A DNA stretch of 64,000 nt from Psilocybe cubensis (GCA_017499595.2 CM039001.1:1-64000); one strand, 5' to 3'. Shown: positions 1 to 19,538, counted from the first letter of the stretch. Translations and numbers: made by a program. The notes: a model not told the origin generated them from the sequence alone.

Positions 1-217
1 AAACCCTAAACCCTAAACCCTAAACCCTAAACCCTAAACCCTAAACCCTAAACCCTAAACCCTAAACCCTAAACCCTAAACCCTAAACCCTAAACCCTAA
101 ACCCTAAACCCTAAACCCTAAACCCTAAACCCTAAACCCTAAACCCTAAACCCTAAACCCTAAACCCCTAAACCCTAAAACCTAAACCCTAAACCCTAAA
201 CCCTAAACCCTAAACCC
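1..217. repeat. Terminal telomeric tract (CCCTAAA)n, i.e. TTTAGGG on the G strand
   Basis: About 30 tandem AAACCCT units from base 1. Variant units AAACCCCT (~162-169) and AAAACCT (~177-183). Confidence 0.98.
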
Positions 218-531
218 AGGTAAGCTATTTATACTCTTGACATGAGAATATTCCCATGTCACGGTTACTCGGAGCCACGTAACCAGAGTATTTTATATCC
301 ATGTGATTCACATCACAGTCAATAACCCACGATGTCAAAGAACAAAAGTGTTGGATCCACTTTTGACAGGTTACCATGTGCCACATCGACCCGTGACACT
401 CTGTTCATCAGAGACCTGTCTAACTTGACAATAAACATTGACAGATTTGTGATAGTCGGTAAGATACATGACAGCTGCGCAGCATCACTTCACGCGCTGT
501 CATCGGATGTCTAGAACATTCCTTCTAAGAA

Positions 532-1527
532 TAGCCACTGAAGAGTCTATAAAGACGAAAGGGCTGGTTGTTGGGATCCCCCAACAGCCCTCAAGTACTC
601 GTCCTCTCCCAAACTCCTGCCGCTTGTGCCTTCCCAACTCATCCGGGAGCCCTTTCGTCACTGATCTTGCCCTTGACTCGGGGACGTTTCATCGACATGT
701 TGGCTGCCTCACGGCAAGCGGGGCCCTTTTTCTTTCACTCGCTCACGCCTTCTATGTTGGGTTACGGAGGTCATACAAACTCGTTTTAGTCTAGCTGCGG
801 GGATATCCAGCTATGATGACTTTGTAATTCGAGGGCGCGCAGTTCTTCAATGGGTATGGACATCAGGTGAGAGTACACTGGGGGTTGTCAGGACCAGCTC
901 TGCTGGATACGCTCCTGGCAAGTCGGTTGCAGCCGGCGACACTACCGAATTGCTGGGACGTCCTAAAGCTTGTGGGTACCGCCGACCGCTGGAAACAGCC
1001 TAGGCACCGGTGGCGACCGGGTATGGTAACAATCCCCAAGATTCAGCGAAAGCTGGAATGGATAATCAGCAGCGAATCCGTAACGGTCACGCCGACGGAA
1101 GCGTTCAACGACTAGGTGGTAGTGGGGTCTTCGGATCTTAAGATATAGTCTTGGGAGTGGGGAAACCCACATCTGGTATCTAAACCGCGCCTCGCTGCTT
1201 ACGAGGACGGCCCGAAGTCCAGAACCGCTTAAAACGCGGGTGACCCGGCCTCCCCTTAGTAAAGGGAGTTAACACAAGGATGGACAAATAGTTCGTCGCC
1301 GGAAATGAACCTGTGGCTGTAATGGCTGATGTGGCGCCCCTTGGTAAAGGGCTTAAAGGGTATTAGCCTGCCATGTCCAATGGCATGAGAGTGTCCCTTG
1401 GTAAAGGACTTAATAGGCAATAGCCTGCTCTTTTGTCATGAGCGGTATGTAGTGATCGTTTGCCTGTACGGTAGCGCCCATTGCTTGCACTGGTCCACGC
1501 CCGTAAAAAATCACGAGCCGCTGGCTA
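532..1527 (+). ncRNA. Type I hammerhead ribozyme interrupted by a group I intron (copy 1)
   Basis: TAGCCA-CTGAAGA-GTCT(ATAA)AGAC-GAAA-GGGCTG...CAGCCC-T | 929-nt insert | C-TGGCTA. Removing 592-1520 restores the intact sequence seen at 5878-5944. Confidence 0.92.
592..1520 (+). ncRNA. Group I self-splicing intron, IC1-like, 929 nt (copy 1)
   Basis: Follows U591 and ends in G1520. Core elements: P AATTGCTGGGA 948-958, Q AATCAGCAGC 1064-1073, R GTTCAACGACTA 1103-1114, S AAGATATAGTC 1140-1150. P3 CACTACC/GGTAGTG, P7 GACTA/TAGTC, P8 with UUCG loop, P9 GTGGG-GAAA-CCCAC. IGS GGGGTTGT 881-888 pairs with exon ACAGCCCT, giving a U.G pair at the splice site. Confidence 0.93.
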
Positions 1528-1631
1528 CTTTCCATTTAACTCCCAGTTTAAACTAGTCGCTCGCACCTCGCTTCGCTCGGTGCTCGCTCCCCCCCTAAAC
1601 CCAACGACTTTGCTATTATCCATCAGCCACT

Positions 1632-4600
1632 ATGTCATCTCAATACTCTGCTGCTTTCTCTCGTGCCATGTCCCCCACCCTGGACGCACTCACCCAGGCC
1701 GTCGTCAACAACACCGTTTTCGGCGTCAACGATGAAGCAGGCCGCCATAACGCTCTGATCGACGAGCTGGCCACTGTGGTCATCAAAAAAATAGCTGAGT
1801 GCCGCTCCGTTGACCAAGTCATAGACTGCGTCTTTTTTGACTATCGTGCTGCCCTTAGGGAGTTTCTCCTCAACCTCGCATCGTGGTGCGATAAGAGGGA
1901 AACAGTCAAGGCTAGCCTCGAGCGCCTTGAATCTGCCGTTAGCGCAGGCAACACGCCCAATCGCCTTAAGGTGAAGGCACCCGAGTTCCAACTTACGAAG
2001 GAATTCGCGGATGCCGGGTCAGCGGAGGCTCTTCGAGTCTCCACTACGTTCTCTACCGCTCGTGACGCCTTCCAAAAGGCAATTAACGACGGCGCCATTC
2101 AGGCGAAAAAGGACGAGCTGACTTTTTGGGATGATAAATGCGCACTCAACTCTTGCTACGAAGCTGCTGCCCTCATCGTTAAGGCAACTTACGATGATCG
2201 CAAATCCAGCTACAAGCTCCCTGTTTTCTCTACAGATAACAAGGGAGTTCGACGTATAGCAGAGTGGGTAGTGTCTCCGCAAAAGAAAGCCGAATGCAGT
2301 GCGCTGCAAACCATACTGCCGGCGATCTTTTCTCACATCAAACAAATTGTCAACATGCGCCACCGCGCTTTGGCAATTAAGATTGAGAAAAAGCGGACGA
2401 CTGCGGCAACAGCCGATGTCGAGATGGCCGACGCGACCAAACCAGGTCCGTCGATTCAATCCCTTATTGATAAGGGCTTGAATGCACGTCTCAAGAAGCT
2501 CAACCTTGGATCTGTGGGCAAGAAGGCAAGTTTTCGTAACCCTTCACCCATAATTCTGGATACTAATTACTACTCTAATTACCCAGACTTTGTCTGGCCA
2601 GAATTCGTCCAAGGCTCCTCAACCTCAGGCCAAGAAAGCTGGCCCTTCGAAACCCAAGTCGTCGTCGACGCCTTCGCAACGCAAGCCTCAAACCAAGGCT
2701 TCCAACAAGGTCGACAACAAGAAGAAAGGGAAGGGGAGAGCTCCCGTCAAGAACGATCCAAAGGGAAAGGGAAAGGCAAGAGCCTAGATGCGCGGTCTAA
2801 TGTAGTACCTTTTACGTCGGTGAGACCCGCCTTCCCCAACTCTATTCCTGACGATATACTCACCATGACTAAAACAGACGCAGTTTCTTTCGTACACTTA
2901 CATACTCCAATATCATTCTTGTTGGCTGGCCAGTATCGTAGTAGTGTACATTGTAGTCCTGGTGTTTCTGTCCCTGTTGATGTAGCAAACGATCTCTCTC
3001 TCGGACTTAATTATATGTTTTTCACTCTGCCTTCTAAAAGTCTGATCATGCAAGCATGGAATGATTTCCAACGAAGAATAAGATGGCGTATCTATTTTTT
3101 GTTTAAGGAAGGCATGAATAAACCTTTTGATCCAGATTATGGAGTAAGCTCAAAAAAGAAAGAGAAACCTCCTGTATTACCGCAATATATGGAACTTGGC
3201 CTTTCGATGGGACGTCGGTACGTGCAACGCACGATCGCAAGTATCCCGGAAGAAGCCCTTACGGAGATGCGAAAGCACGCGTTCTCTCCTAAAAGGGACA
3301 AGATCCGTAAGTTTCTTATCGATAACAACTATGTTATTACGATGACAGATAAGAATCTTGGCCTCGCGGTGTCTGAACGCGACTGGATATTAAGGAATGA
3401 GCTCAATCTTCTTGAAGATGAACGTAATTACGAAGAGTTAGAATTCGAAGTTGCGCAAGAAGTTATGAAGAGCAAAATGATTCAGATGCAAACGCTCGCA
3501 CGTACTGTCGAAGATGAACATCTGTTTCTATTTGAACTTGGGTTGTCTCGATTCTTTCTATCGAATGTACCGGAAGACGGATCATCGTTCAAGTATCCTC
3601 AATTTCATGGTATACCTAAAATCCACAAGAAACCTACTGGATTTAGGCCCATAATTCCGTGTCACTCTGTAGTATTTAATCCTGCAGCCAAGTTTGTATC
3701 AAAAGAGCTTAAGCCGATTATTAAATCGACTCCTTCAATCATACACGGAACGAAGGATCTCTTTACGAGATTAAGCCAATTGCGTATAGACTCCAAAAGA
3801 CAATGGTATTTTGTCACTGGAGATGTAGTTGCTTTCTATCCCAATATTCCGTTGGACTTGTGCATCGAAATCGTTTGTAGTATGTACGAGGAATGGTTAC
3901 TCAACGCTTCGGAAGAAAACACTGCATTAGCCCATATTAATCCAAATTCGTTAGAGAATAACTTGGTTAAATTGGGCATCTTTAAACGTGCTATCGAGAT
4001 TGGCAATACGCAATTGATAACACAACATGGGTCTAGATATTTTAGACAAAAAAATGGCCTCGCAATGGGCGTCGCGGATTCTCCGGACCTTGCTAACCTC
4101 TTTGGAGCCCATTTTGAAATAAAGTCAAAAATCTTAGACCACCCAAACGTGGCCTTCTATGGAAGGTACATCGACGATTGTTTCGCAATTGTTTACGCCG
4201 AGTCCGAAGCACTTGCACTTAATCTTATTAAAGAAACAATAAAGTTCGATGGTTGTGTTATCGAATGGGCTGTTTCCTCGTCGGGATGTCAATTTCTCGA
4301 TGCTTTCATATTCAAGGAGTCTGGAAAACTTCATTGGAAGCCTTTTGTCAAGACAGGAAACAACCGAGAACGAGTTCCATGGGTATCACATCATCCTTTG
4401 GACGTCAAACGTGGCGTCTACATTGGAGAGTTATCCAGGTTAGCCGTGCTATGTAGTACCAAGGAAATCTACATCGGAGCAATTAGAGACCTTAACGCTC
4501 TCTATTTGATGCGCGGTTATCCCGAAAACCTAGTCATATCTTGGTGTAAGAAGAATATACAAGAACGTTGGGAAAAGCGATTCGCTTTACGAGTCGCAGA

Positions 4601-5162
4601 GCACGACGAATCCATTCTTGTACTTAAAACCAGATTTGATCAGGTATGGAATTGGTTTTCAGCTGCTGAACTTGGAAAAACTGTTACCGAGTACTGGTCG
4701 GCATGGTATGAACATGCCGAGAAAGGTTTGTATAGTGCAGACTCGTCCAGACCCCTTATCAAACCAGATCCAAATTACGTTCACGACCTCGATGATGTTC
4801 GCCCGGAGCTGTTCACACAGATCCTCGTGGACGGAGAAACTGAGTTCGTACCGGATTTGAGGAAGATAGGACTACTCGGAAGTCGTTGGATAGTATCGCG
4901 AAAACGCAATACTAATCTTTTCGACCTTGCAAATGTGTGGAAGAAAACAGTCTTTCGTAAACTGGATGAAGACATCGCTGAAAAAGGTGGTGTTGTTCCC
5001 GAAACTCAAAACGTTAATGAAACTTATCATTCTGCTTTAGTTGAAGCTACTGAGCAGATAAGTATCGAAAGTGATAACGAGATAATACTTCATAGACGTT
5101 CAATCTCACAAGAGAGGGAACATCCAGAATTTGGCAGAATATCCAAATCTTACAACCGATGA
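1632..5162 (+). CDS. PLE (Coprina-like) ORF1-reverse transcriptase, 1176 aa
   Basis: Motifs FHGIPKIHK..FRPII, VTGDVVAFYPNI, QKNGLAMG, YGRYIDDCF, FLD and thumb-like SHHP..KRG. No C-terminal GIY-YIG. Confidence 0.95.
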   Translation: MSSQYSAAFSRAMSPTLDALTQAVVNNTVFGVNDEAGRHNALIDELATVVIKKIAECRSVDQVIDCVFFDYRAALREFLLNLASWCDKRETVKASLERLESAVSAGNTPNRLKVKAPEFQLTKEFADAGSAEALRVSTTFSTARDAFQKAINDGAIQAKKDELTFWDDKCALNSCYEAAALIVKATYDDRKSSYKLPVFSTDNKGVRRIAEWVVSPQKKAECSALQTILPAIFSHIKQIVNMRHRALAIKIEKKRTTAATADVEMADATKPGPSIQSLIDKGLNARLKKLNLGSVGKKASFRNPSPIILDTNYYSNYPDFVWPEFVQGSSTSGQESWPFETQVVVDAFATQASNQGFQQGRQQEEREGESSRQERSKGKGKGKSLDARSNVVPFTSVRPAFPNSIPDDILTMTKTDAVSFVHLHTPISFLLAGQYRSSVHCSPGVSVPVDVANDLSLGLNYMFFTLPSKSLIMQAWNDFQRRIRWRIYFLFKEGMNKPFDPDYGVSSKKKEKPPVLPQYMELGLSMGRRYVQRTIASIPEEALTEMRKHAFSPKRDKIRKFLIDNNYVITMTDKNLGLAVSERDWILRNELNLLEDERNYEELEFEVAQEVMKSKMIQMQTLARTVEDEHLFLFELGLSRFFLSNVPEDGSSFKYPQFHGIPKIHKKPTGFRPIIPCHSVVFNPAAKFVSKELKPIIKSTPSIIHGTKDLFTRLSQLRIDSKRQWYFVTGDVVAFYPNIPLDLCIEIVCSMYEEWLLNASEENTALAHINPNSLENNLVKLGIFKRAIEIGNTQLITQHGSRYFRQKNGLAMGVADSPDLANLFGAHFEIKSKILDHPNVAFYGRYIDDCFAIVYAESEALALNLIKETIKFDGCVIEWAVSSSGCQFLDAFIFKESGKLHWKPFVKTGNNRERVPWVSHHPLDVKRGVYIGELSRLAVLCSTKEIYIGAIRDLNALYLMRGYPENLVISWCKKNIQERWEKRFALRVAEHDESILVLKTRFDQVWNWFSAAELGKTVTEYWSAWYEHAEKGLYSADSSRPLIKPDPNYVHDLDDVRPELFTQILVDGETEFVPDLRKIGLLGSRWIVSRKRNTNLFDLANVWKKTVFRKLDEDIAEKGGVVPETQNVNETYHSALVEATEQISIESDNEIILHRRSISQEREHPEFGRISKSYNR
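2526..2586 (+). other. Putative 61-nt GC-AG spliceosomal intron in the retroelement ORF (present in all full-length copies)
   Basis: AAG|GCAAGT donor, CTAAT branch-like motifs, CCCAG| acceptor. Splicing joins codon 298 in frame to the Lys-rich 2590-2787 ORF. Confidence 0.72.
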
Positions 5163-6012
5163 AAAGAATACTAGCGCTTAAGGCGTAAAGCATTAGAAAA
5201 AAACCCTAACCGTAAGTATTCCTTGCTATAAAGTAACAAACATCTACTTACAAGCAACACATTGGATTGAATAGCTAAACCTAAACCTAAACCCTAAACC
5301 CTAAACCCTAAACCCTAACCTAACCCCAACCCTAAGCTAACTAAGTCTAACCTTAGTAGGAAGTAAGGTAGGCGTGTGAACTTCCGAACGGCATGTGATT
5401 GTGAAGGGCCGGATCTAATTTAGTACATGGGAAAAGTTACTTAGTACTTCGGGAAAAGTTCCTTAGTACCGTGGAAACATTTTTGATGGACCGGATCATG
5501 AACTGTCCAATTAAGATTCACAACAATCAATCATTCTATTGTTTGATTGTTAGGTAAGGACCCAGGTAAGTTATTTATACTCTAGACATGTGAATATTCC
5601 CATGTCGCGGTTACTCGGAGCCACGTAACCAGAGTAATCTATATCCATGTGATTCACATCACAGTCAATAACCCACGATGTCAAAGAACAAAAGTGTTGG
5701 ATCCACTTTTGACAGGTTACCATGTGCCACATCGACCCGTGACACTCTGTTCATCAGAGACCTGTCTAACTTGACGATAAACATTGACAGATTTGTGATA
5801 GTCGGTAAGATACATGACAGCTGCGCAGCATCACTTCACGCGCTGTCATCGGATGTCTAGAACATTCCTTCTAAGAATAGCCACTGAAGAGTCTATAAAG
5901 ACGAAAGGGCTGGTTGTTGGGATCCCCCAACAGCCCTCTGGCTACTTTCCATTTAACTCCCAGTTTAAACTAGTCGCTCGCACCTCGCTTCGCTCGGTGC
6001 TCGCTCCCCCCC
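5163..6012 (+). repeat. 3' UTR / pseudo-LTR of the element
   Basis: Same block follows every ORF. It contains an internal degenerate telomeric tract (~5275-5352), hairpins and a hammerhead, and ends in CGCTCCCCCCCTAAACCC. Confidence 0.9.
5878..5944 (+). ncRNA. Intact type I hammerhead ribozyme
   Basis: Stem I TAGCCA/TGGCTA, core CTGAAGA and GAAA, stem II GTCT/AGAC, stem III GGGCTG/CAGCCC, cleavage triplet CUC. Confidence 0.93.
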
Positions 6013-6075
6013 TAAACCCTAAACCCTAAACCCTAAACCCTAAACCCTAAACCCTAAACCCTAAACCCTAAACCC
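6010..6075. repeat. Interstitial telomeric tract between elements
   Basis: About 9 perfect CCCTAAA units. Confidence 0.95.
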
Positions 6076-7958
6076 GTCAAAAATCTTAGACCACCCAAAC
6101 GTGGCCTTCTATGGAAGGTACATCGACGATTGTTTCGCAATTGTTTACGCCGAGTCCGAAGCACTTGCACTTAATCTTATTAAAGAAACAATAAAGTTCG
6201 ATGGTTGTGTTATCGAATGGGCTGTTTCCTCGTCGGGATGTCAATTTCTCGATGCTTTCATATTCAAGGAGTCTGGAAAACTTCATTGGAAGCCATTTGT
6301 CAAGACAGGAAACAACCGAGAACGAGTTCCATGGGTATCACATCATCCTTTGGACGTCAAACGTGGCGTCTACATTGGAGAGTTATCCAGGTTAGCCGTG
6401 CTATGTAGTACCAAGGAAATCTACATCGGAGCAATTAGAGACCTTAACGCTCTCTATTTGATGCGCGGTTATCCCGAAAACCTAGTCATGTCTTGGTGTA
6501 AGAAGAATATACAAGAACGTTGGGAAAAGCGATTCGCTTTACGAGTCGCAGAGCACGACGAATCCATTCTTGTACTTAAAACCAGATTTGATCAGGTATG
6601 GAATTGGTTTTCAGCTGCTGAACTTGGAAAAACTGTTACCGAGTACTGGTCGGCATGGTATGAACATGCCGAGAAAGGTTTGTATAGTGCAGACTCGTCC
6701 AGACCCCTTATCAAACCAGATCCAAATTACGTTCACGACCTCGATGATGTTCGCCCGGAGCTGTTCACACAGATCCTCGTGGACGGAGAAACTGAGTTCG
6801 TACCGGATTTGAGGAAGATAGGACTACTCGGAAGTCGTTGGATAGTATCGCGAAAACGCAATACTAATCTTTTCGACCTTGCAAATGTGTGGAAGAAAAC
6901 AGTCTTTCGTAAACTGGATGAAGACATCGCTGAAAAAGGTGGTGTTGTTCCCGAAACTCAAAACGTTAATGAAACTTATCATTCTGCTTTAGTTGAAGCT
7001 GCTGAACAGATAAGTATCGAAAGTGATAACGAGATAATACTTCATAGACGTTCAATCTCACAAGAGAGGGAACATCCAGAATTCGGCAGAATATCCAAAT
7101 CTTACAACCGATGAAAAGAATACTAGCGCGTAAGGCGTAAAGCATTAGAAAAAAACCCTAACCGTAAGTATTCCTTGCTACAAAGTAACAAACATCTACT
7201 TACAAGCAACACATTGGATTAAATAGCTAAACCTAAACCTAAACCCTAAACCCTAAACCCTAAGCCCTAACCTAACCCCAACCCTAAGCTAACTAAGTCT
7301 AACCTTAGTAGGAAGTAAGGTAGGCGTGTGAACTTCCGAAAGGCATGTGATTGTGAAGGGCCGGATCTAATTTAGTACATGGGAAAAGTTACTTAGTACC
7401 TCGGGAAAAGTTCCTTAGTACCGTGGAAACATTTTTGATGGACCGGATCATGAACTGTCCAATTAAGATTCACAACAATCAATCAATTGATTGTTAGGTA
7501 AGGACCCAGGTAAGCTATTTATACTCTTGACATGAGAATATTCCCATGTCACGGTTACTCGGAGCCACGTAACCAGAGTATTTTATATCCATGTGATTCA
7601 CATCACAGTCAATAACCCACGATGTCAAAGAACAAAAGTGTTGGATCCACTTTTGACAGGTTACCATGTGCCACATCGACCCGTGACACTCTGTTCATCA
7701 GAGATCTGTCTAACTTGACAATAAACATTGACAGATTTGTGATAGTCGGTAAGATACATGACAGCTGCGCAGCATCACTTCACGCGCTGTCATCGGATGT
7801 TCCAGAACATTCCTTCTAAGAATAGCCACTGAAGAGTCTATAAAGACGAAAGGGCTGGCTGCTGATAACAATCAACAGCCCTCTGGCCTTCTTTCCATTT
7901 AACTCACAGTTTAAACAAGTCGCTCGCACCTCGCTTCGCTCGGTGCTCGCTCCCCCCC
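6076..7958 (+). mobile_element. 5'-truncated PLE copy (RT C-terminal part 6076-7114 plus pLTR)
   Basis: Starts abruptly at GTCAAAAATC, just upstream of the YIDD motif, directly after telomeric repeats. Confidence 0.93.
7823..7887 (+). ncRNA. Intact hammerhead, stem III loop variant
   Basis: Same core. Stem III distal part reads GCTGCTGATAACAATCAA. Confidence 0.9.
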
Positions 7959-8014
7959 TAAACCCTAAACCCTAAAACCTAAACCCTAAACCCTAAACCC
8001 TAAACCCTAAACCC
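7956..8014. repeat. Interstitial telomeric tract
   Basis: CCCTAAA units including the AAAACCT variant also seen in the terminal tract. Confidence 0.95.
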
Positions 8015-8388
8015 AGGTAAGCTATTTATACTCTTGACATGAGAATATTCCCATGTCACGGTTACTCGGAGCCACGTAACCAGAGTATTTTATATCCATG
8101 TGATTCACATCACAGTCAATAACCCACGATGTCAAAGAACAAAAGTGTTGGATCCACTTTTGACAGGTTACCATGTGCCACATCGACCCGTGACACTCTG
8201 TTCATCAGAGACCTGTCTAACTTGACAATAAACATTGACAGATTTGTGATAGTCGGTAAGATACATGACAGCTGCGCAGCATCACTTCACGCGCTGTCAT
8301 CGGATGTCTAGAACATTCCTTCTAAGAATAGCCACTGAAGAGTCTATAAAGACGAAAGGGCTGGTTGTTGGGATCCCCCAACAGCCCT

Positions 8389-9317
8389 CAAGTACTCGTC
8401 CTCTCCCAAACTCCTGCCGCTTGTGCCTTCCCAACTCATCCGGGAGCCCTTTCGTCACTGATCTTGCCCTTGACTCGGGGACGTTTCATCGACATGTTGG
8501 CTGCCTCACGGCAAGCGGGGCCCTTTTTCTTTCACTCGCTCACGCCTTCTATGTTGGGTTACGGAGGTCATACAAACTCGTTTTAGTCTAGCTGCGGGGA
8601 TATCCAGCTATGATGACTTTGTAATTCGAGGGCGCGCAGTTCTTCAATGGGTATGGACATCAGGTGAGAGTACACTGGGGGTTGTCAGGACCAGCTCTGC
8701 TGGATACGCTCCTGGCAAGTCGGTTGCAGCCGGCGACACTACCGAATTGCTGGGACGTCCTAAAGCTTGTGGGTACCGCCGACCGCTGGAAACAGCCTAG
8801 GCACCGGTGGCGACCGGGTATGGTAACAATCCCCAAGATTCAGCGAAAGCTGGAATGGATAATCAGCAGCGAATCCGTAACGGTCACGCCGACGGAAGCG
8901 TTCAACGACTAGGTGGTAGTGGGGTCTTCGGATCTTAAGATATAGTCTTGGGAGTGGGGAAACCCACATCTGGTATCTAAACCGCGCCTCGCTGCTTACG
9001 AGGACGGCCCGAAGTCCAGAACCGCTTAAAACGCGGGTGACCCGGCCTCCCCTTAGTAAAGGGAGTTAACACAAGGATGGACAAATAGTTCGTCGCCGGA
9101 AATGAACCTGTGGCTGTAATGGCTGATGTGGCGCCCCTTGGTAAAGGGCTTAAAGGGTATTAGCCTGCCATGTCCAATGGCATGAGAGTGTCCCTTGGTA
9201 AAGGACTTAATAGGCAATAGCCTGCTCTTTTGTCATGAGCGGTATGTAGTGATCGTTTGCCTGTACGGTAGCGCCCATTGCTTGCACTGGTCCACGCCCG
9301 TAAAAAATCACGAGCCG
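8389..9317 (+). ncRNA. Group I intron, copy 2 (929 nt), interrupting the hammerhead at ~8329-9322
   Basis: Apparently identical to 592-1520, with the same CAGCCCT|...GAGCCG|CTGGC junctions. Confidence 0.93.
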
Positions 9318-9431
9318 CTGGCCTTCTTTCTATTTCAAACTCACAGTTTAAACTAGTCGCTCGCACCTCGCTTCGCTCGGTGCTCGCTCCCCCCCTAAAC
9401 CCAACGACTTTGCTATCACCCATCAGTTACC

Positions 9432-12400
9432 ATGTCATCCCAATACTCTGCTGCATTCTCTCGTGCCATGTCCCCTACCCTGGACGCACTCACCCAGGCC
9501 GTCGTCAACAACACTGTCTTCGGCGTCAACGATGAAGCAGGCCGCCATAACGCTCTTATCGACGAGCTGGCCACTGTGGTCATCAAAAAAATAGCTGAGT
9601 GCCGCTCCGTTGACCAAGTCATAGACTGCGTCTTTTTTGACTATCGTGCTGCCCTCAGGGAGTTTCTCCTCAACCTCGCATCGTGGTGCGACAAGAGGGA
9701 AACAGTCAAGGCTAGCCTCGAGCGCCTTGAATCTGCCGTTAGCGCAGGCAACACGCCCAATCGCCTTAAGGTGAAGGCACCCGAGTTCCAACTTACGAAG
9801 GAATTCGCGGATGCCGGGTCAGCGGAGGCTCTTCGAGTCTCCACTACGTTCTCTTCCGCTCGTGATGCCTTCCAAAAGGCAATTAACGACGGCGCCGTTC
9901 AGGCGAAAAAGGACGAGCTGGCTTTTTGGGATGATAAATGCGCGCTCAACTCTTGCTACGAAGCTGCTGCCCTCATCGTTAAGGCAACTTACGATGATCG
10001 CAAATCCAGCTACAAGCTCCCTGTTTTCTCTACAGACAACAAGGGAGTTCGACGTATAGCAGAGTGGGTAGTGTCTCCGCAAAAGAAAGCCGAATGCAGT
10101 GCGCTGCAAACTATACTGCCGGCGATCTTTTCTCATATCAAACAGATTGTCAACATGCGCCACCGCGCCTTGGCAATTAAGATTGAGAAAAAGCGGACGA
10201 CTGCGGCAACAGCCGATGTCGAGATGGCCGATGCGACCAAACCAGGTCCATCGATTCAATCCCTTATTGATAAGGGCTTGAATGCACGTCTCAAAAAGCT
10301 CAACCTTGGATCTGTGGGCAAGAAGGCAAGTTTTCGTAACCCTTCACCCATAATTCTGGACACTAATTATTACTCTAATTACCCAGACTTTGTCTGGCCA
10401 GAATTCGTCCAAGGCTCCTCAACCTCAGGCCAGGAAAGCTGGCCCTTCGAAACCCAAGTCGTCGTCGACGCCTTCGCAGAGGAAGCCTCAAACCAAGGCT
10501 TCCAACAAGGTCGACAACAAGAAGAAAGGGAAGGGGAGAGCTCCCGTCAAGAACAACGATCCAAAGGGAAAGGGAAAGGCAAGAGCCTAGACGCGCGGTC
10601 TACTGTAGCATCATTTACGTCGGTGAGACCCGCCTTCCCCAACTCTATTCCTGACGATATACTCACCATGACTAAAACAGACGCAGTTTCTTTTGTACAC
10701 CTCAATACCCCGATTTCATTCTTATTGGCTGGCCAGTATAGATCTAGTGTACACTGTAGTCCTGGTGTTTCGGTCCCTGTTGATGTAGCAAATGATTTAT
10801 CTCTTGGACTCAATTATATGTTTTTTACACTGCCTTCTAAAAGTCTGATCATGCAAGCATGGAATGATTTTCAACGAAGAATAAGATGGCGTATCTATTT
10901 TTTGTTTAAAGAAGGCATGAATAAACCTTTCGATCCAGACTATGGAGTAAGCTCTAAAAAGAAAGAGAAACCTCCAATGTTACCCGCAATTTATGGAACT
11001 TGGCCTTTCAATGGGACGTCGGTACGTTATTAAAACGATCGCAAGTATCCCGGAAGAAGCCCTTAAAGAGATGCGAAAGCACGCGTTCTCTCCTAAAAGG
11101 GACAAGATCCAAAAGTTTCTTTTCGATAACAACTATGTTATTACGATGACAGATAAGAATCTTGGCCTCGCGGTGTCTGAACGCGACTGGATATTAAGGA
11201 ATGAGCTCAATCTTCTTGAAGATGAACGCAACTACGAAGAGTTAGAATTCGAAGTTGCGCAAGAAGTTATGAAGAGCAAAATGATTCAGATGCAAACTCT
11301 CGCACGTACCGTCGAAGATGAACATCTGTTTCTATTTGAACTTGGGTTGTCTCGATTCTTTCTATCGAATGTACCGGAAGACGGATCATCGTTCAAGTAT
11401 CCTCAATTTCATGGTATACCTAAAATCCACAAGAAACCTACTGGATTTAGGCCCATAATTCCGTGTCACTCTGTAGTATTTAATCCTGCAGCCAAGTTTG
11501 TATCAAAAGAGCTTAAGCCGATTATTAAATCGACTCCTTCAATCATTCACGGAACGAAGGATCTCTTTACGAGATTAAGCCAATTGCGTATAGACCCCAA
11601 ACGACAATGGTATTTTGTCACCGGGGATGTAGTTGCTTTCTATCCCAATATTCCGTTGGACTTGTGCATCGAAATCGTTTGTAATATGTACGAGGAATGG
11701 TTACTCAACGCTTCGGAAGAAAACACTGCATTAGCCCATATTAATCCAAATTCGTTAGAGAATAACTTGGTTAAATTGGGCATCTTTAAACGTGCTATCG
11801 AGATTGGCAATACGCAATTGATAACACAACATGGGTCTAGATATTTTAGACAAAAAAATGGCCTCGCAATGGGCGTCGCGGATTCTCCGGACCTTGCTAA
11901 CCTCTTTGGAGCCCATTTTGAAATAAAGTCAAAAATCTTAGACCACCCAAACGTGGCCTTCTATGGAAGGTACATCGACGATTGTTTCGCAATTGTTTAC
12001 GCCGAGTCCGAAGCACTTGCACTTAATCTTATTAAAGAAACAATAAAGTTCGATGGTTGTGTTATCGAATGGGCTGTTTCCTCGTCGGGATGTCAATTTC
12101 TCGATGCTTTCATATTCAAGGAGTCTGGAAAACTTCATTGGAAGCCATTTGTCAAGACAGGAAACAACCGAGAACGAGTTCCATGGGTATCACATCATCC
12201 TTTGGACGTCAAACGTGGCGTCTACATTGGAGAGTTATCCAGGTTAGCCGTGCTATGTAGTACCAAGGAAATCTACATCGGAGCAATTAGAGACCTTAAC
12301 GCTCTCTATTTGATGCGCGGTTATCCCGAAAACCTAGTCATGTCTTGGTGTAAGAAGAATATACAAGAACGTTGGGAAAAGCGATTCGCTTTACGAGTCG

Positions 12401-12966
12401 CAGAGCACGACGAATCCATTCTTGTACTTAAAACCAGATTTGATCAGGTATGGAATTGGTTTTCAGCTGCTGAACTTGGAAAGACTGTTACCGAGTACTG
12501 GTCGGCATGGTATGAACATGCCGAGAAAGGTCTGTATAGTGCAGACTCGTCCAGACCCCTTATCAAACCAGATCCAAATTACGTTCACGACCTCGATGAT
12601 GTTCGCCCGGAGCTGTTCACACAGATCCTCGTGGACGGAGAAACTGAGTTCGTACCGGATTTGAGGAAGATAGGACTACTCGGAAGTCGTTGGATAGTAT
12701 CGCGAAAGCGCAATACTAATCTTTTCGACCTTGCAAATGTGTGGAAGAAAACAGTCTTTCGTAAACTGGATGAAAACATCGCTGAAAAAGGTGGTGTTGT
12801 TCCCGAAACTCAAAACGTTAATGAAACTTATCATTCTGCTCTAGTTGAAGCTGCTGAACAGATAAGTATCGAAAGTGATAACGAGATAATACTTCATAGA
12901 CGTTCAATCTCACAAGAGAGGGAACATCCAGAATTCGGCAGAATATCCAAATCTTACAACCGATGA
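9432..12966 (+). pseudogene. PLE ORF1-RT copy with a +1 frameshift near 10983-10985
   Basis: TTACCCGCAA versus TTACCGCAA in intact copies. Split into 533-aa and 657-aa ORFs. Could be a sequencing error. Confidence 0.85.
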
Positions 12967-13675
12967 AAAGAATACTAGCGCGTAAGGCGTAAAGCATTAG
13001 AAAAAAACCCTAACCGTAAGTATTCCTTGCTATAAAGTAACAAACATCTACTTACAAGCAACACTTTGGATTAAATAGCTAAACCTAAACCCTAAACCCT
13101 AAACCCTAAACCCTAACCTAACCCCAACCCTAAGCTAACTAAGTCTAACCTTAGTAGGAAGTAAGGTAGGCGTGTGAACTTCCGAACGGCATGTGATTGT
13201 GAAGGGCCGGATCTAATTTAGTACATGGGAAAAGTTACTTAGTACTTCGGGAAAAGTTCCTTAGTACCGTGGAAACATTTTTGATGGACCGGATCATGAA
13301 CTGTCCAATTAAGATTCACAACAATCAATCATTCTATTGTTTGATTGTTAGGTAAGGACCCAGGTAAGCTATTTATACTCTAGACATGTGAATATTCCCA
13401 TGTCGCGGTTACTCGGAGCCACGTAACCAGAGTAATCTATATCCATGTGATTCACATCACAGTCAATAACCCACGATGTCAAAGAACAAAAGTGTTGGAT
13501 CCACTTTTGACAGGTTACCATGTGCCACATCGACCCGTGACACTCTGTTCATCAGAGACCTGTCTAACTTGACAATAAACATTGACAGATTTGTGATAGT
13601 CGGTAAGATACATGACAGCTGCGCAGCATCACTTCACGCGCTGTCATCGGATGTCTAGAACATTCCTTCTAAGAA

Positions 13676-13740
13676 TAGCCACTGAAGAGTCTATAAAGAC
13701 GAAAGGGCTGGTTGTTGGGATCCCCCAACAGCCCTCTGGC
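13676..13740 (+). ncRNA. Intact hammerhead ribozyme
   Basis: GCCA-CTGAAGA...GAAA-GGGCTG...CAGCCCTC-TGGC. Confidence 0.9.
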
Positions 13741-14422
13741 CTTCTTTCTATTTCAAACTCACAGTTTAAACTAGTCGCTCGCACCTCGCTTCGCTCGGTG
13801 CTCGCTCCCCCCCTAAACCCTAAACCCTAAACCTAAACCTAAACCCTAAACCCTAAACCCTAAGCCCTAACCTAACCCCAACCCTAAGCTAACTAAGTCT
13901 AACCTTAGTAGGAAGTAAGGTAGGCGTGTGAACTTCCGAAAGGCATGTGATTGTGAAGGGCCGGATCTAATTTAGTACATGGGAAAAGTTACTTAGTACC
14001 TCGGGAAAAGTTCCTTAGTACCGTGGAAACATTTTTGATGGACCGGATCATGAACTGTCCAATTAAGATTCACAACAATCAATCAATTGATTGTTAGGTA
14101 AGGACCCAGGTAAGCTATTTATACTCTTGACATGAGAATATTCCCATGTCACGGTTACTCGGAGCCACGTAACCAGAGTATTTTATATCCATGTGATTCA
14201 CATCACAGTCAATAACCCACGATGTCAAAGAACAAAAGTGTTGGATCCACTTTTGACAGGTTACCATGTGCCACATCGACCCGTGACACTCTGTTCATCA
14301 GAGATCTATCTAACTTGACAATAAACATTGACAGATTTGTGATAGTCGGTAAGATACATGACAGCTGCGCAGCATCACTTCACGCGCTGTCATCGGATGT
14401 TCCAGAACATTCCTTCTAAGAA

Positions 14423-14489
14423 TAGCCACTGAAGAGTCTATAAAGACGAAAGGGCTGGCTGCTGATAACAATCAACAGCTCTCTGGCTA
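14423..14489 (+). ncRNA. Intact hammerhead ribozyme (G.U variant in stem III)
   Basis: Core conserved. CAGCTC replaces CAGCCC and keeps pairing by wobble. Confidence 0.9.
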
Positions 14490-14593
14490 CTTTCCATTTA
14501 ACTCACAGTTTAAATTAGTCGCTCGCACCTCGCTTCGCTCGGTGCTCGCTCCCCCCCTAAACCCAACGACTTTGCTATTATCCATCAGCCACT

Positions 14594-18127: not shown

Positions 18128-18835
18128 AAAGAATACTAGCGCGTAAGGCGTAAAGCATTAGAAAAAAACCCTAACCGTAAGTATTCCTTGCTACAAAGTA
18201 ACAAACATCTACTTACAAGCAACACATTGGATTAAATAGCTAAACCTAAACCTAAACCCTAAACCCTAAACCCTAAGCCCTAACCTAACCCCAACCCTAA
18301 GCTAACTAAGTCTAACCTTAGTAGGAAGTAAGGTAGGCGTGTGAACTTCCGAAAGGCATGTGATTGTGAAGGGCCGGATCTAATTTAGTACATGGGAAAA
18401 GTTACTTAGTACCTCGGGAAAAGTTCCTTAGTACCGTGGAAACATTTTTGATGGACCGGATCATGAACTGTCCAATTAAGATTCACAACAATCAATCAAT
18501 TGATTGTTAGGTAAGGACCCAGGTAAGCTATTTATACTCTTGACATGAGAATATTCCCATGTCACGGTTACTCGGAGCCACGTAACCAGAGTATTTTATA
18601 TCCATGTGATTCACATCACAGTCAATAACCCACGATGTCAAAGAACAAAAGTGTTGGATCCACTTTTGACAGGTTACCATGTGCCACATCGACCCGTGAC
18701 ACTCTGTTCATCAGAGATCTATCTAACTTGACAATAAACATTGACAGATTTGTGATAGTCGGTAAGATACATGACAGCTGCGCAGCATCACTTCACGCGC
18801 TGTCATCGGATGTTCCAGAACATTCCTTCTAAGAA

Positions 18836-18902
18836 TAGCCACTGAAGAGTCTATAAAGACGAAAGGGCTGGCTGCTGATAACAATCAACAGCTCTCTGGC
18901 TA
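18836..18902 (+). ncRNA. Intact hammerhead ribozyme (G.U variant)
   Basis: Same as 14423-14489. Confidence 0.9.
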
Positions 18903-19538
18903 CTTTCCATTTAACTCACAGTTTAAATTAGTCGCTCGCACCTCGCTTCGCTCGGTGCTCGCTCCCCCCCTAAACCCTAAGCCCTAACCTAACCCCAACC
19001 CTAAGCTAACTAAGTCTAACCTTAGTAGGAAGTAAGGTAGGCGTGTGAACTTCCGAACGGCATGTGATTGTGAAGGGCCGGATCTAATTTAGTACATGGG
19101 AAAAGTTACTTAGTACTTCGGGAAAAGTTCCTTAGTACCGTGGAAACATTTTTGATGGACCGGATCATGAACTGTCCAATTAAGATTCACAACAATCAAT
19201 CAATTGATTGTTAGGTAAGGACCCAGGTAAGCTATTTATACTCTTGACATGTGAATATTCCCATGTCGCGGTTACTCGGAGCCACGTAACCAGAGTAATC
19301 TATATCCATGTGATTCACATCACAGTCAATAACCCACGATGTCAAAGAACAAAAGTGTTGGATCCACTTTTGACAGGTTACCATGTGCCACATTGACCCG
19401 TGACACTCTGTTCATCAGAGACCTGTCTAACTTGACAATAAACATTGACAGATTTGTGATAGTCGGTAAGATACATGACAGCTGCACAGCATCACTTCAC
19501 GCGCTGTCATCGGATGTCTAGAACATTCCTTCTAAGAA

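Follow-up and report, generated by a model that had tools for sequence, protein, structure and literature searches.

How does a group I intron with no recognisable mobility gene come to stand in several copies of a retroelement? The question is raised by one end of a Psilocybe cubensis chromosome (GCA_017499595.2 CM039001.1:1-64000; this whole stretch of 64,000 nt is called the window below, and all coordinates are counted on its plus strand). Here, two of the ten terminal repeats (pLTRs) of a telomeric array of retroelements, putatively Penelope-like elements (PLEs), are split by a 929-nt insert that, judged by its sequence, is a complete, IC1-like group I intron (592–1520). An earlier note on this DNA had pointed to an unusually large P1 loop without a homing endonuclease, and had proposed that the intron moves by reverse splicing into element RNA, with the PLE reverse transcriptase (RT) doing the rest. 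We hold, with somewhat more confidence than doubt, the following reading as a whole: an IC1-like intron seated in the hammerhead ribozyme of a PLE is propagated by the element as a module passed on by RT template switching, its first entry having been by reverse splicing.

Intron boundaries, guide sequence and the long P1 loop

Alignment of the ten pLTR copies in the window shows the insert in 2/10 and its absence in 8/10, and delimits it to 929 nt with a one-nucleotide (C) ambiguity, which was settled by the group I rule that the exon ends in U and the intron in G. The 5' exon then ends in ...CAGCCCU591, the intron has G1520 as its terminal base, and the 3' exon starts with C1521UGGC. The joint 591 to 1521, which skips exactly these 929 nt, is found in contigs from all three DNA runs assembled (X8, X9 and X10). 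The Rfam family Intron_gpI (RF00028) matches 876–1172 and 8673–8969, each time with 70.9 bits (gathering score 50) and over model positions 1–253 of 253, and these two intron copies give the only above-gathering Rfam matches in the window. The apparently intact ribozyme suggests that the intron is able to splice.

The guide sequence was sought by trying every G from 600 to 1520 as the partner of U591. G881 yields ten contiguous base pairs, between 584–593 and 879–888 (eight exon and two intron pairs), the runner-up, G1154, yields 6 bp, and the best candidate inside 592–870, G720, only 5 bp. The real guide sequence thus lies 290 nt downstream of the 5' splice site, where the earlier note had placed it, and since all other candidates reach at most 6 bp, no alternative guide lies near the 5' end; the presence of such a guide is what that note had named as speaking against itself. 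Its proposed extension of P1, GTACTC (595–600) with GAGTAC (871–876) closing a 270-nt loop at 601–870, is likewise present in the minimum free energy fold of 570–900, together with the pairs 601–604/858–861. Stems of at least six Watson–Crick pairs abutting P1 (with 0–2 unpaired bases per side) arose in 6/5000 dinucleotide shuffles, or in 99/5000 with G–U pairs allowed.

The content of this loop, L1, was examined in several ways. Homing endonuclease genes typically encode 160 amino acids (aa) or more. The ten longest (55–112 aa) of the 36 stop-to-stop frames of at least 20 aa across 456–1556 were compared with Pfam at E<=10, and no endonuclease family (His-Cys, LAGLIDADG, GIY-YIG or HNH) was matched, in keeping with the absence of homing endonuclease motifs reported before; the only matches were noise (Xin, E=0.11; Leu_Phe_trans, E=0.17). 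An ATG-initiated open reading frame (ORF) of 108 aa runs from the 5' exon over the splice site into L1 (468–794); it has no Pfam match and is probably fortuitous. Three other identities of the loop were ruled out: a structured domain, its fold being no stabler than that of shuffles (z = –0.07, 200 shuffles); a repeat array, of which TRF finds none; and a copy of other DNA in the window, for which blastn returns only intron copy 2 and a 12-mer considered below. Rfam finds no second ribozyme in L1 or in the 3' (P9) extension (noise only: suhB, E=0.098; Fungi_SRP, E=5.9), and no GIR1-like match was found.

L1 is collinear in contigs from other runs, with only +2 and –2 nt indels listed. X9 contigs over the loop carry 11 substitutions plus 9 gap letters in 223 nt (542–764) and 17+2 in 209 nt (735–943), against only 7 in 607 nt over 914–1520; in X10 contigs the values are 13+2 in 153 nt (735–887) against 1 in 166 nt (858–1023) and 9+4 in 558 nt (1003–1560). 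Divergence in these short contigs is about 9–10% in the loop and about 1–2% in the core and 3' extension; as the loop exceeds the core, it appears less constrained than both, which hints at weak constraint on its sequence. L1 would be a tolerated peripheral extension that evolves faster than the core and holds neither an endonuclease nor excess structure. Its size, 270 nt, is indeed uncommon, but the word "unusually" calls for some qualification: an ORF-less P1 extension of 255 nt is in print (PMC8395846), so that the long loop alone is of modest interest.

At the other end of the intron, the P9 extension contains three hairpins (1250–1268, 1336–1352 and 1393–1409) with a conserved loop, CUURGUAAA, and stems that differ yet remain complementary, which may form a repeated protein- or RNA-binding module. 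It also contains AGGGCT (1348–1353), complementary to the exon end. A metagenome pattern scan returned 119 loci, the best of them with 63–65% identity and restricted to the core (925–1151), and gave no match to L1 or to the P9 extension; the nearest core matches lie in or beside eukaryotic small- or large-subunit (SSU or LSU) rRNA in 4/6 loci checked.

Hammerhead context, chimeric repeats and mode of spread

The intron interrupts a putative hammerhead ribozyme. A permissive Rfam scan of an intron-less copy (14404–14488) gives RAGATH-1-hammerhead with 24.8 bits and E=0.073, under the gathering score. All core bases of a type-I hammerhead are seen by eye (C3 U4 G5 A6 N7 G8 A9 / G12 A13 A14, A15.1–U16.1, H17), in the order CUGAAGA, 4-bp helix II, GAAA, long helix III, U–C with the cleavage site, and helix I. 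Among the eight intron-less copies, which make a small sample of six distinct, related rows, 95.2% of cells are paired, the observed values being reached in 5/500 shuffles, and helix III shows two compensatory pairs. A putative type-I hammerhead was noted in every pLTR; for the repeats of fungal PLEs, hammerheads of this type, with an extended helix III, are reported in the literature (PMC4209133).

The intron parts U16.1 from C17, one base off the cleavage site, so that before splicing 929 nt stand between the two sections of the hammerhead core and only splicing can restore the hammerhead. The 5' strand of P1 is at the same time the 3' strand of helix III and, with the intron one base from the cleavage site, these two helices are in competition.

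Evidence on the mode of spread comes from comparison of the two intron copies, which reside in the 5' pLTRs of element copies 1 and 2. They are 100% identical over 1360 nt (166–1525 versus 7963–9322) and diverge from 1526, while the bodies of the two elements are about 96–97% identical. The identical module consists of a 52-nt telomeric tract, the 374-nt 5' exon, the intron and CTGGC. The tract (166–217) includes a TAAAACC variant and recurs letter for letter at 7963–8014, upstream of intron copy 2; the 5' exon (218–591) differs at 5–13 positions, all of them before 471, from the eight intron-less repeats.

Differences were counted separately for the parts of each repeat that precede and follow the hammerhead site, here called its upstream and downstream halves. 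The downstream half of the 5' repeat shows no difference from the element's own 3' repeat in copy 1 or in copy 2, and the upstream half shows seven in copy 1 and five in copy 2. The downstream halves (82–85 nt) of the two copies differ mutually by six, their upstream halves being identical. In the intron-less copies 3 and 5, both halves show 0 differences. In both intron-bearing copies, no more than 5 nt separate the switch from the 3' splice site and hammerhead cleavage site, and the 5-nt CTGGC shared there fits a microhomology switch. From these chimeric repeats it follows that the intron travels as a module of 5' exon plus intron joined to different bodies, and the position of the switch at the 3' splice site points to spread by RT template switching. 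A different 3' junction was seen in one contig of X9, a run carrying the same species label, where G1520 is followed at once by a downstream half from which the first 7 nt are missing.

The proposed mechanism is as follows. The intron, having no mobility gene of its own, would be propagated by the retroelement, whose unspliced RNA would be reverse transcribed. The RT would copy element RNA up to its hammerhead-cleaved 5' end (5'-UGGC...) and would then continue on an unspliced, read-through, intron-bearing RNA, producing a chimeric 5' repeat; the module would thereby pass between element lineages. Reverse splicing would be the likeliest first entry into the element, and it appears the best account of that original event because of the 8-bp guide match after U. 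The mobility suggested in the earlier note is borne out in part: there is no endonuclease gene, the host transcript belongs to a retroelement whose RT could make an insertion into RNA permanent, and the insertion is RNA-precise. Reverse splicing as the ongoing route finds no support, since the two copies share one 5' exon module.

Several points weigh against this reading, beginning with RNA folding. At 648–659, L1 contains a perfect 12-nt reverse complement of the hammerhead core (554–565), found with blastn, a length reached in 0/300 L1 shuffles; the same stretch repeats the last six exon bases, AGCCCT. In the fold of 500–900 the pairing 648–659/554–565 has a probability of about 0.97, and this nested fold holds the exon end in a shifted helix III hairpin, leaving P1 at ~0.02. 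Splicing may hence be slow or factor-dependent, owing to the sequestered exon end. The fold with P1 enforced is only 2.4 kcal/mol higher (–131.3 vs –128.9), and in-silico scrambling of the 12-mer raises the probability of P1 from 0.02 to about 0.90 in 12/12 scrambles. Because pairing of the 12-mer and P1 together would make a pseudoknot, a nested-fold program can hold only one of them at a time, and so the scrambling shows no more than this small energy difference between the two folds and is no functional test. The antisense stretch may compete with P1 formation.

Further counterpoints concern the sample. The window contains only two intron copies, identical to each other, which amounts to one haplotype and two junctions, and recombination at the DNA level between subtelomeric copies could yield the same chimeras. 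The contrast in divergence between loop and core comes from short assembled contigs, possibly of different copies. There is no RNA evidence of splicing: the sole RNA contig, of 178 nt from the metatranscriptome X14, has the intron-less form (471–592 + 1535–1576) and matches an intron-less copy equally well, and runs X22 and X23, in which such evidence was also sought, contain next to none of the words. The X14 contig spans the uncleaved hammerhead site of a pLTR of the intron-less type; the pLTR may be transcribed in this environmental sample, DNA carry-over being possible.

Among other explanations, the one that survives best is that reverse splicing is the current route as well: free intron RNA would repeatedly reverse-splice into intron-less pLTR RNA at ...CAGCCCU/C, and the RT would copy the product onto chromosome ends. 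It would account for the 8-bp match of exon and guide, the insertion after U and the terminal G. Intron-less targets with the same site are many, eight of them in the window, and in X9 the word depth of the repeat is about 880–1990 versus 29–68 for the intron (depth being distinct from copy number); RT and end-integration would be provided by the host element. Against this stands the identity of the foreign 5' exon, as independent reverse splicing would keep the recipients' own 5' exons, and both copies carry the same exon together with its upstream telomere tract, neither being the recipient's. The target strand is, besides, buried in hammerhead helix III, and the intron was seen with a single upstream-half haplotype. 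The full pathway is described in the review literature as still lacking experimental evidence (PMC3679873). We regard repeated reverse splicing as an unlikely source of the present copies.

Spread at the DNA level, in which ectopic recombination, gene conversion or break-induced replication moved the telomere tract, 5' exon and intron together, seems to us a little less likely again. Highly similar subtelomeric arrays are good recombination substrates, those here consist of repeats that are 96–100% identical, and the shared 52-nt variant tract shows that upstream DNA context was copied too. With several kilobases of homology at hand, however, both junctions stand no more than 5 nt away from the 3' splice and cleavage site, and copy 1, the most distal unit, has its own 3' telomere tract, as in terminal addition.

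It would take more to make us accept that the ribozyme no longer splices and that the intron is an inert passenger, merely disabling the 5' hammerhead; we consider this improbable. In its favour are the sequestration of the exon end in the predicted folds, a P10 of at most 1 bp (read by eye) and the long peripheral extensions, a usual trait of introns unable to self-splice in vitro (PMC3679873). Yet the core is complete at 70.9 bits, the splice-site U–G pair and terminal G are intact, and contigs of X9 and X10 show far stronger conservation in the core and 3' extension than in L1. Finally, we hold it highly improbable that L1 derives by decay from a homing endonuclease gene once seated in P1 and that the intron arrived by an endonuclease-driven event: nuclear group I introns do carry His-Cys genes in P1 (PMC8395846, PMC3679873) and the loop evolves faster than the core, but no endonuclease family is found in the ten frames scanned, 270 nt is far under the length of such a gene, no longer L1 variant appears in the three DNA runs (only the +2/–2 nt indels being listed), and the need for sites of 15–20 bp (PMC3679873) makes an ectopic jump from ribosomal DNA (rDNA) unlikely. 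The reading in which the element carries the module by template switching remains the one that we prefer.

The host retroelement and its chromosome-end setting

The window starts with ~217 nt of a (CCCTAA)n telomere tract (1–217). On the plus strand there follow six retroelement copies arranged head to tail, five of full length and one truncated at its 5' end, with short (CCCTAA)n tracts between them; the repeats of this subtelomeric array are 96–100% identical. Copy 1, the outermost of them, has its own telomere tract on its 3' flank. Every unit ends in a terminal repeat of ~450 nt, the pLTR, followed by CCCTAA repeats, which is a published hallmark of endonuclease-less telomeric PLEs (PMC8557442, PMC6431247).

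Each unit has one ORF of ~1176 aa in which the RT motifs FYPNIP, GLAMGVADSP and YIDD are read by eye. The top three database relatives of this protein have 99% identity and are source-labelled Psilocybe cubensis, and one 99%-identical relative is source-labelled "Reverse transcriptase domain-containing protein". Pfam gives 0 matches for the protein itself, and a homologue, P0055 (49% identical), matches RVT_1 with E=3.7e-6 and 27.2 bits, under the cut-off of 29.6. No endonuclease family (e.g., GIY-YIG) was found for the RT ORF. A phmmer search of PDB with the protein returned nothing, and a profile of 16 sequences gave low-complexity matches and a weak match to the Drt3a RT (E=0.33), none of them usable.

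The label "PLE reverse transcriptase" used for this protein before therefore divides into two. What the sequence supports is RT identity only, via the sub-threshold RVT_1 match of the homologue; the Penelope-like label is supported by architecture. The array has the architecture of the Coprina/Athena type, with hammerhead-bearing pLTRs, reverse-complement telomeric repeats downstream of them and head-to-tail copies at a chromosome end, and in telomeric PLEs such repeats lie just downstream of the hammerhead (PMC6431247). We accordingly describe the host as a putative PLE, a telomere-attached and endonuclease-less element of the Coprina type.

Some further features of the array were observed. 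The 738-nt pLTRs of copy 3 are 100% identical (13827–14564 versus 18240–18977), which speaks for a recent addition. Between copies 4 and 5 lies a single pLTR that belongs to both, with no telomeric tract separating them. In copy 2 the ORF is frameshifted (9432–11033 and 10993–12966). Full-length copies that stand on telomere tracts start at AGGTAAG (218–224), which resembles the spliceosomal 5' splice-site consensus, and 3' pLTR versions (e.g., 14090–14115) reach ~290 nt farther upstream than the copies starting with AGGTAAG.

Table 1. Features of the intron, the hammerhead and the retroelement array in the window.
Feature	Coordinates	Strand	Remarks
5' exon, upstream half of pLTR (U)	218–591	+	374 nt; identical in copy 2
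Hammerhead, 5' part	533–591	+	helix I strand 533–537; CUGAAGA core 538–544
Hammerhead helix II / GAAA / helix III	545–548/553–556; 557–560; 560–591	+	
P1, 5' strand	584–593	+	last 8 exon nt and first 2 intron nt; splice site 591/592
P1 extension, 5' strand	595–604	+	GTACTC and GTCC
L1, ORF-less P1 loop of 270 nt	601–870	+	coding capacity at most 90 aa
P1 extension, 3' strand	858–876	+	GGAC 858–861, GAGTAC 871–876
Internal guide sequence, P1 3' strand	879–888	+	G881 pairs with U591
Ribozyme core	889–1172	+	P2 889–917, P2.1 922–937, P3 940–946/1118–1124 (reading of the Rfam alignment)
Core, P4–P5 with P5 extension of ~100 nt		+	two GAAA-capped hairpins, 988–999 and 1044–1055
Core, P6; P7; P8; P9	1072–1103; 1110–1114/1146–1150; 1126–1137; 1157–1170	+	
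3' (P9) extension, 348 nt	1173–1520	+	ends in terminal G1520
Hammerhead C17 / helix I 3' strand	1521/1522–1526	+	parted from the 5' part by the intron
3' exon, downstream half of pLTR (D)	1521–1602	+	ends in CCCTAAACCC
Intron copy 2	8389–9317	+	100% identical; L1 8398–8667; in the 5' pLTR of element copy 2
Element copy 1	214–6050	+	most distal unit
Retroelement ORF, 1176 aa	1632–5162	+	RT motifs; endonuclease domain not detected
5'-truncated element copy	6076–7996	+	
Element copy 2	8011–13849	+	
Element copies 3–5	to about 28533	+	
Sequence for comparing guide sequence and target with any related host-rDNA intron			ACAGCCCU

Relation to known introns and biological meaning

What is new about this intron is its location and not the size of its loop: it lies outside rDNA, in the putative hammerhead of a telomeric retroelement. 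According to two reviews, all known nuclear group I introns interrupt rRNA genes in rDNA (PMC3679873, PMC8395846). The flanks of the present one are a retroelement repeat adjoining the telomere, and Rfam gives no rRNA match within the 64-kb window. In the library searched, we met with no paper that reports a group I intron within a telomeric PLE or splitting its hammerhead, and none describing the spread of this module by template switching; a 2025 paper on an intron database, searched by term, has no mention of transposons or telomeres.

The closest likeness in overall build is Mcr.S1389, an IC1 intron from the SSU rDNA of Mucilago crustacea, which has 1274 nt, a P1 of 255 nt, a P9 of 715 nt and no ORF (PMC8395846). 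Its P1/P10 is strong, and its P9 extension includes repeated motifs, some of them guide-like (PMC8395846). Both introns combine a long ORF-less P1 extension (the 270-nt L1 here) with a long, repeat-bearing P9 extension (348 nt here). The likeness is one of description, between a myxomycete rDNA intron and an intron in a basidiomycete retroelement repeat, and the repeats here are three dispersed hairpins rather than arrays (TRF finds none). Extended peripheral loops typify introns that need host factors for splicing (PMC3679873).

Introns with His-Cys endonuclease genes, including some at S1389, also agree with ours in that P1, one of the sites of such genes (PMC3679873), takes large insertions; here, however, the loop shows neither an ORF nor any sign of an endonuclease, and its length would not suffice to encode one. 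The putative pLTR hammerheads are like those of fungal and telomeric PLEs (PMC4209133, PMC6431247) in their CUGANGA...GAAA, long helix III and downstream telomere-complement repeats, and differ from them in that 2/10 repeats are split by a 929-nt group I intron. As in twin-ribozyme introns, where GIR1 lies within GIR2 (PMC3679873), two ribozymes are nested in one transcript, but here the group I ribozyme is inside a hammerhead and nothing GIR1-like is matched.

A further parallel is the experimental reverse splicing of Tetrahymena and Didymium introns, which like the insertion seen here is guide-directed integration after U (PMC3679873). A natural route of this kind has been proposed to need reverse transcription and integration (PMC3679873). 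Unlike in those systems, both steps are inherent here in the RNA life cycle of the host, and the data show transfer of a module.

We put forward only tentatively the stronger joint proposal that a nuclear group I intron is here met outside rDNA for the first time, that it has become part of the 5' leader of the element, that it spreads without an endonuclease by RT template switching at RNA ends cleaved by the hammerhead, and that the 12-nt antisense stretch toggles the RNA between a fold competent for splicing and an unspliced one suited to serve as RT template. The function of hammerheads in such retroelements has itself yet to be settled (PMC11167929). In the intron-bearing repeats the hammerhead would be able to cleave only once group I splicing had taken place, a naturally occurring instance in which one ribozyme interrupts another.

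The RNA route of reverse splicing, reverse transcription and integration has never been shown end to end, according to the reviews (PMC3679873, PMC8395846). If our reading is true, the terminal repeats of this retroelement would offer a natural setting in which the reverse transcription and integration steps of that pathway are built in and can be assayed, with an apparently intact group I ribozyme placed in an RNA that is routinely reverse transcribed onto chromosome ends. As intron-less and intron-bearing targets stand side by side, the question of how such introns spread would become testable in one cultivable fungus.

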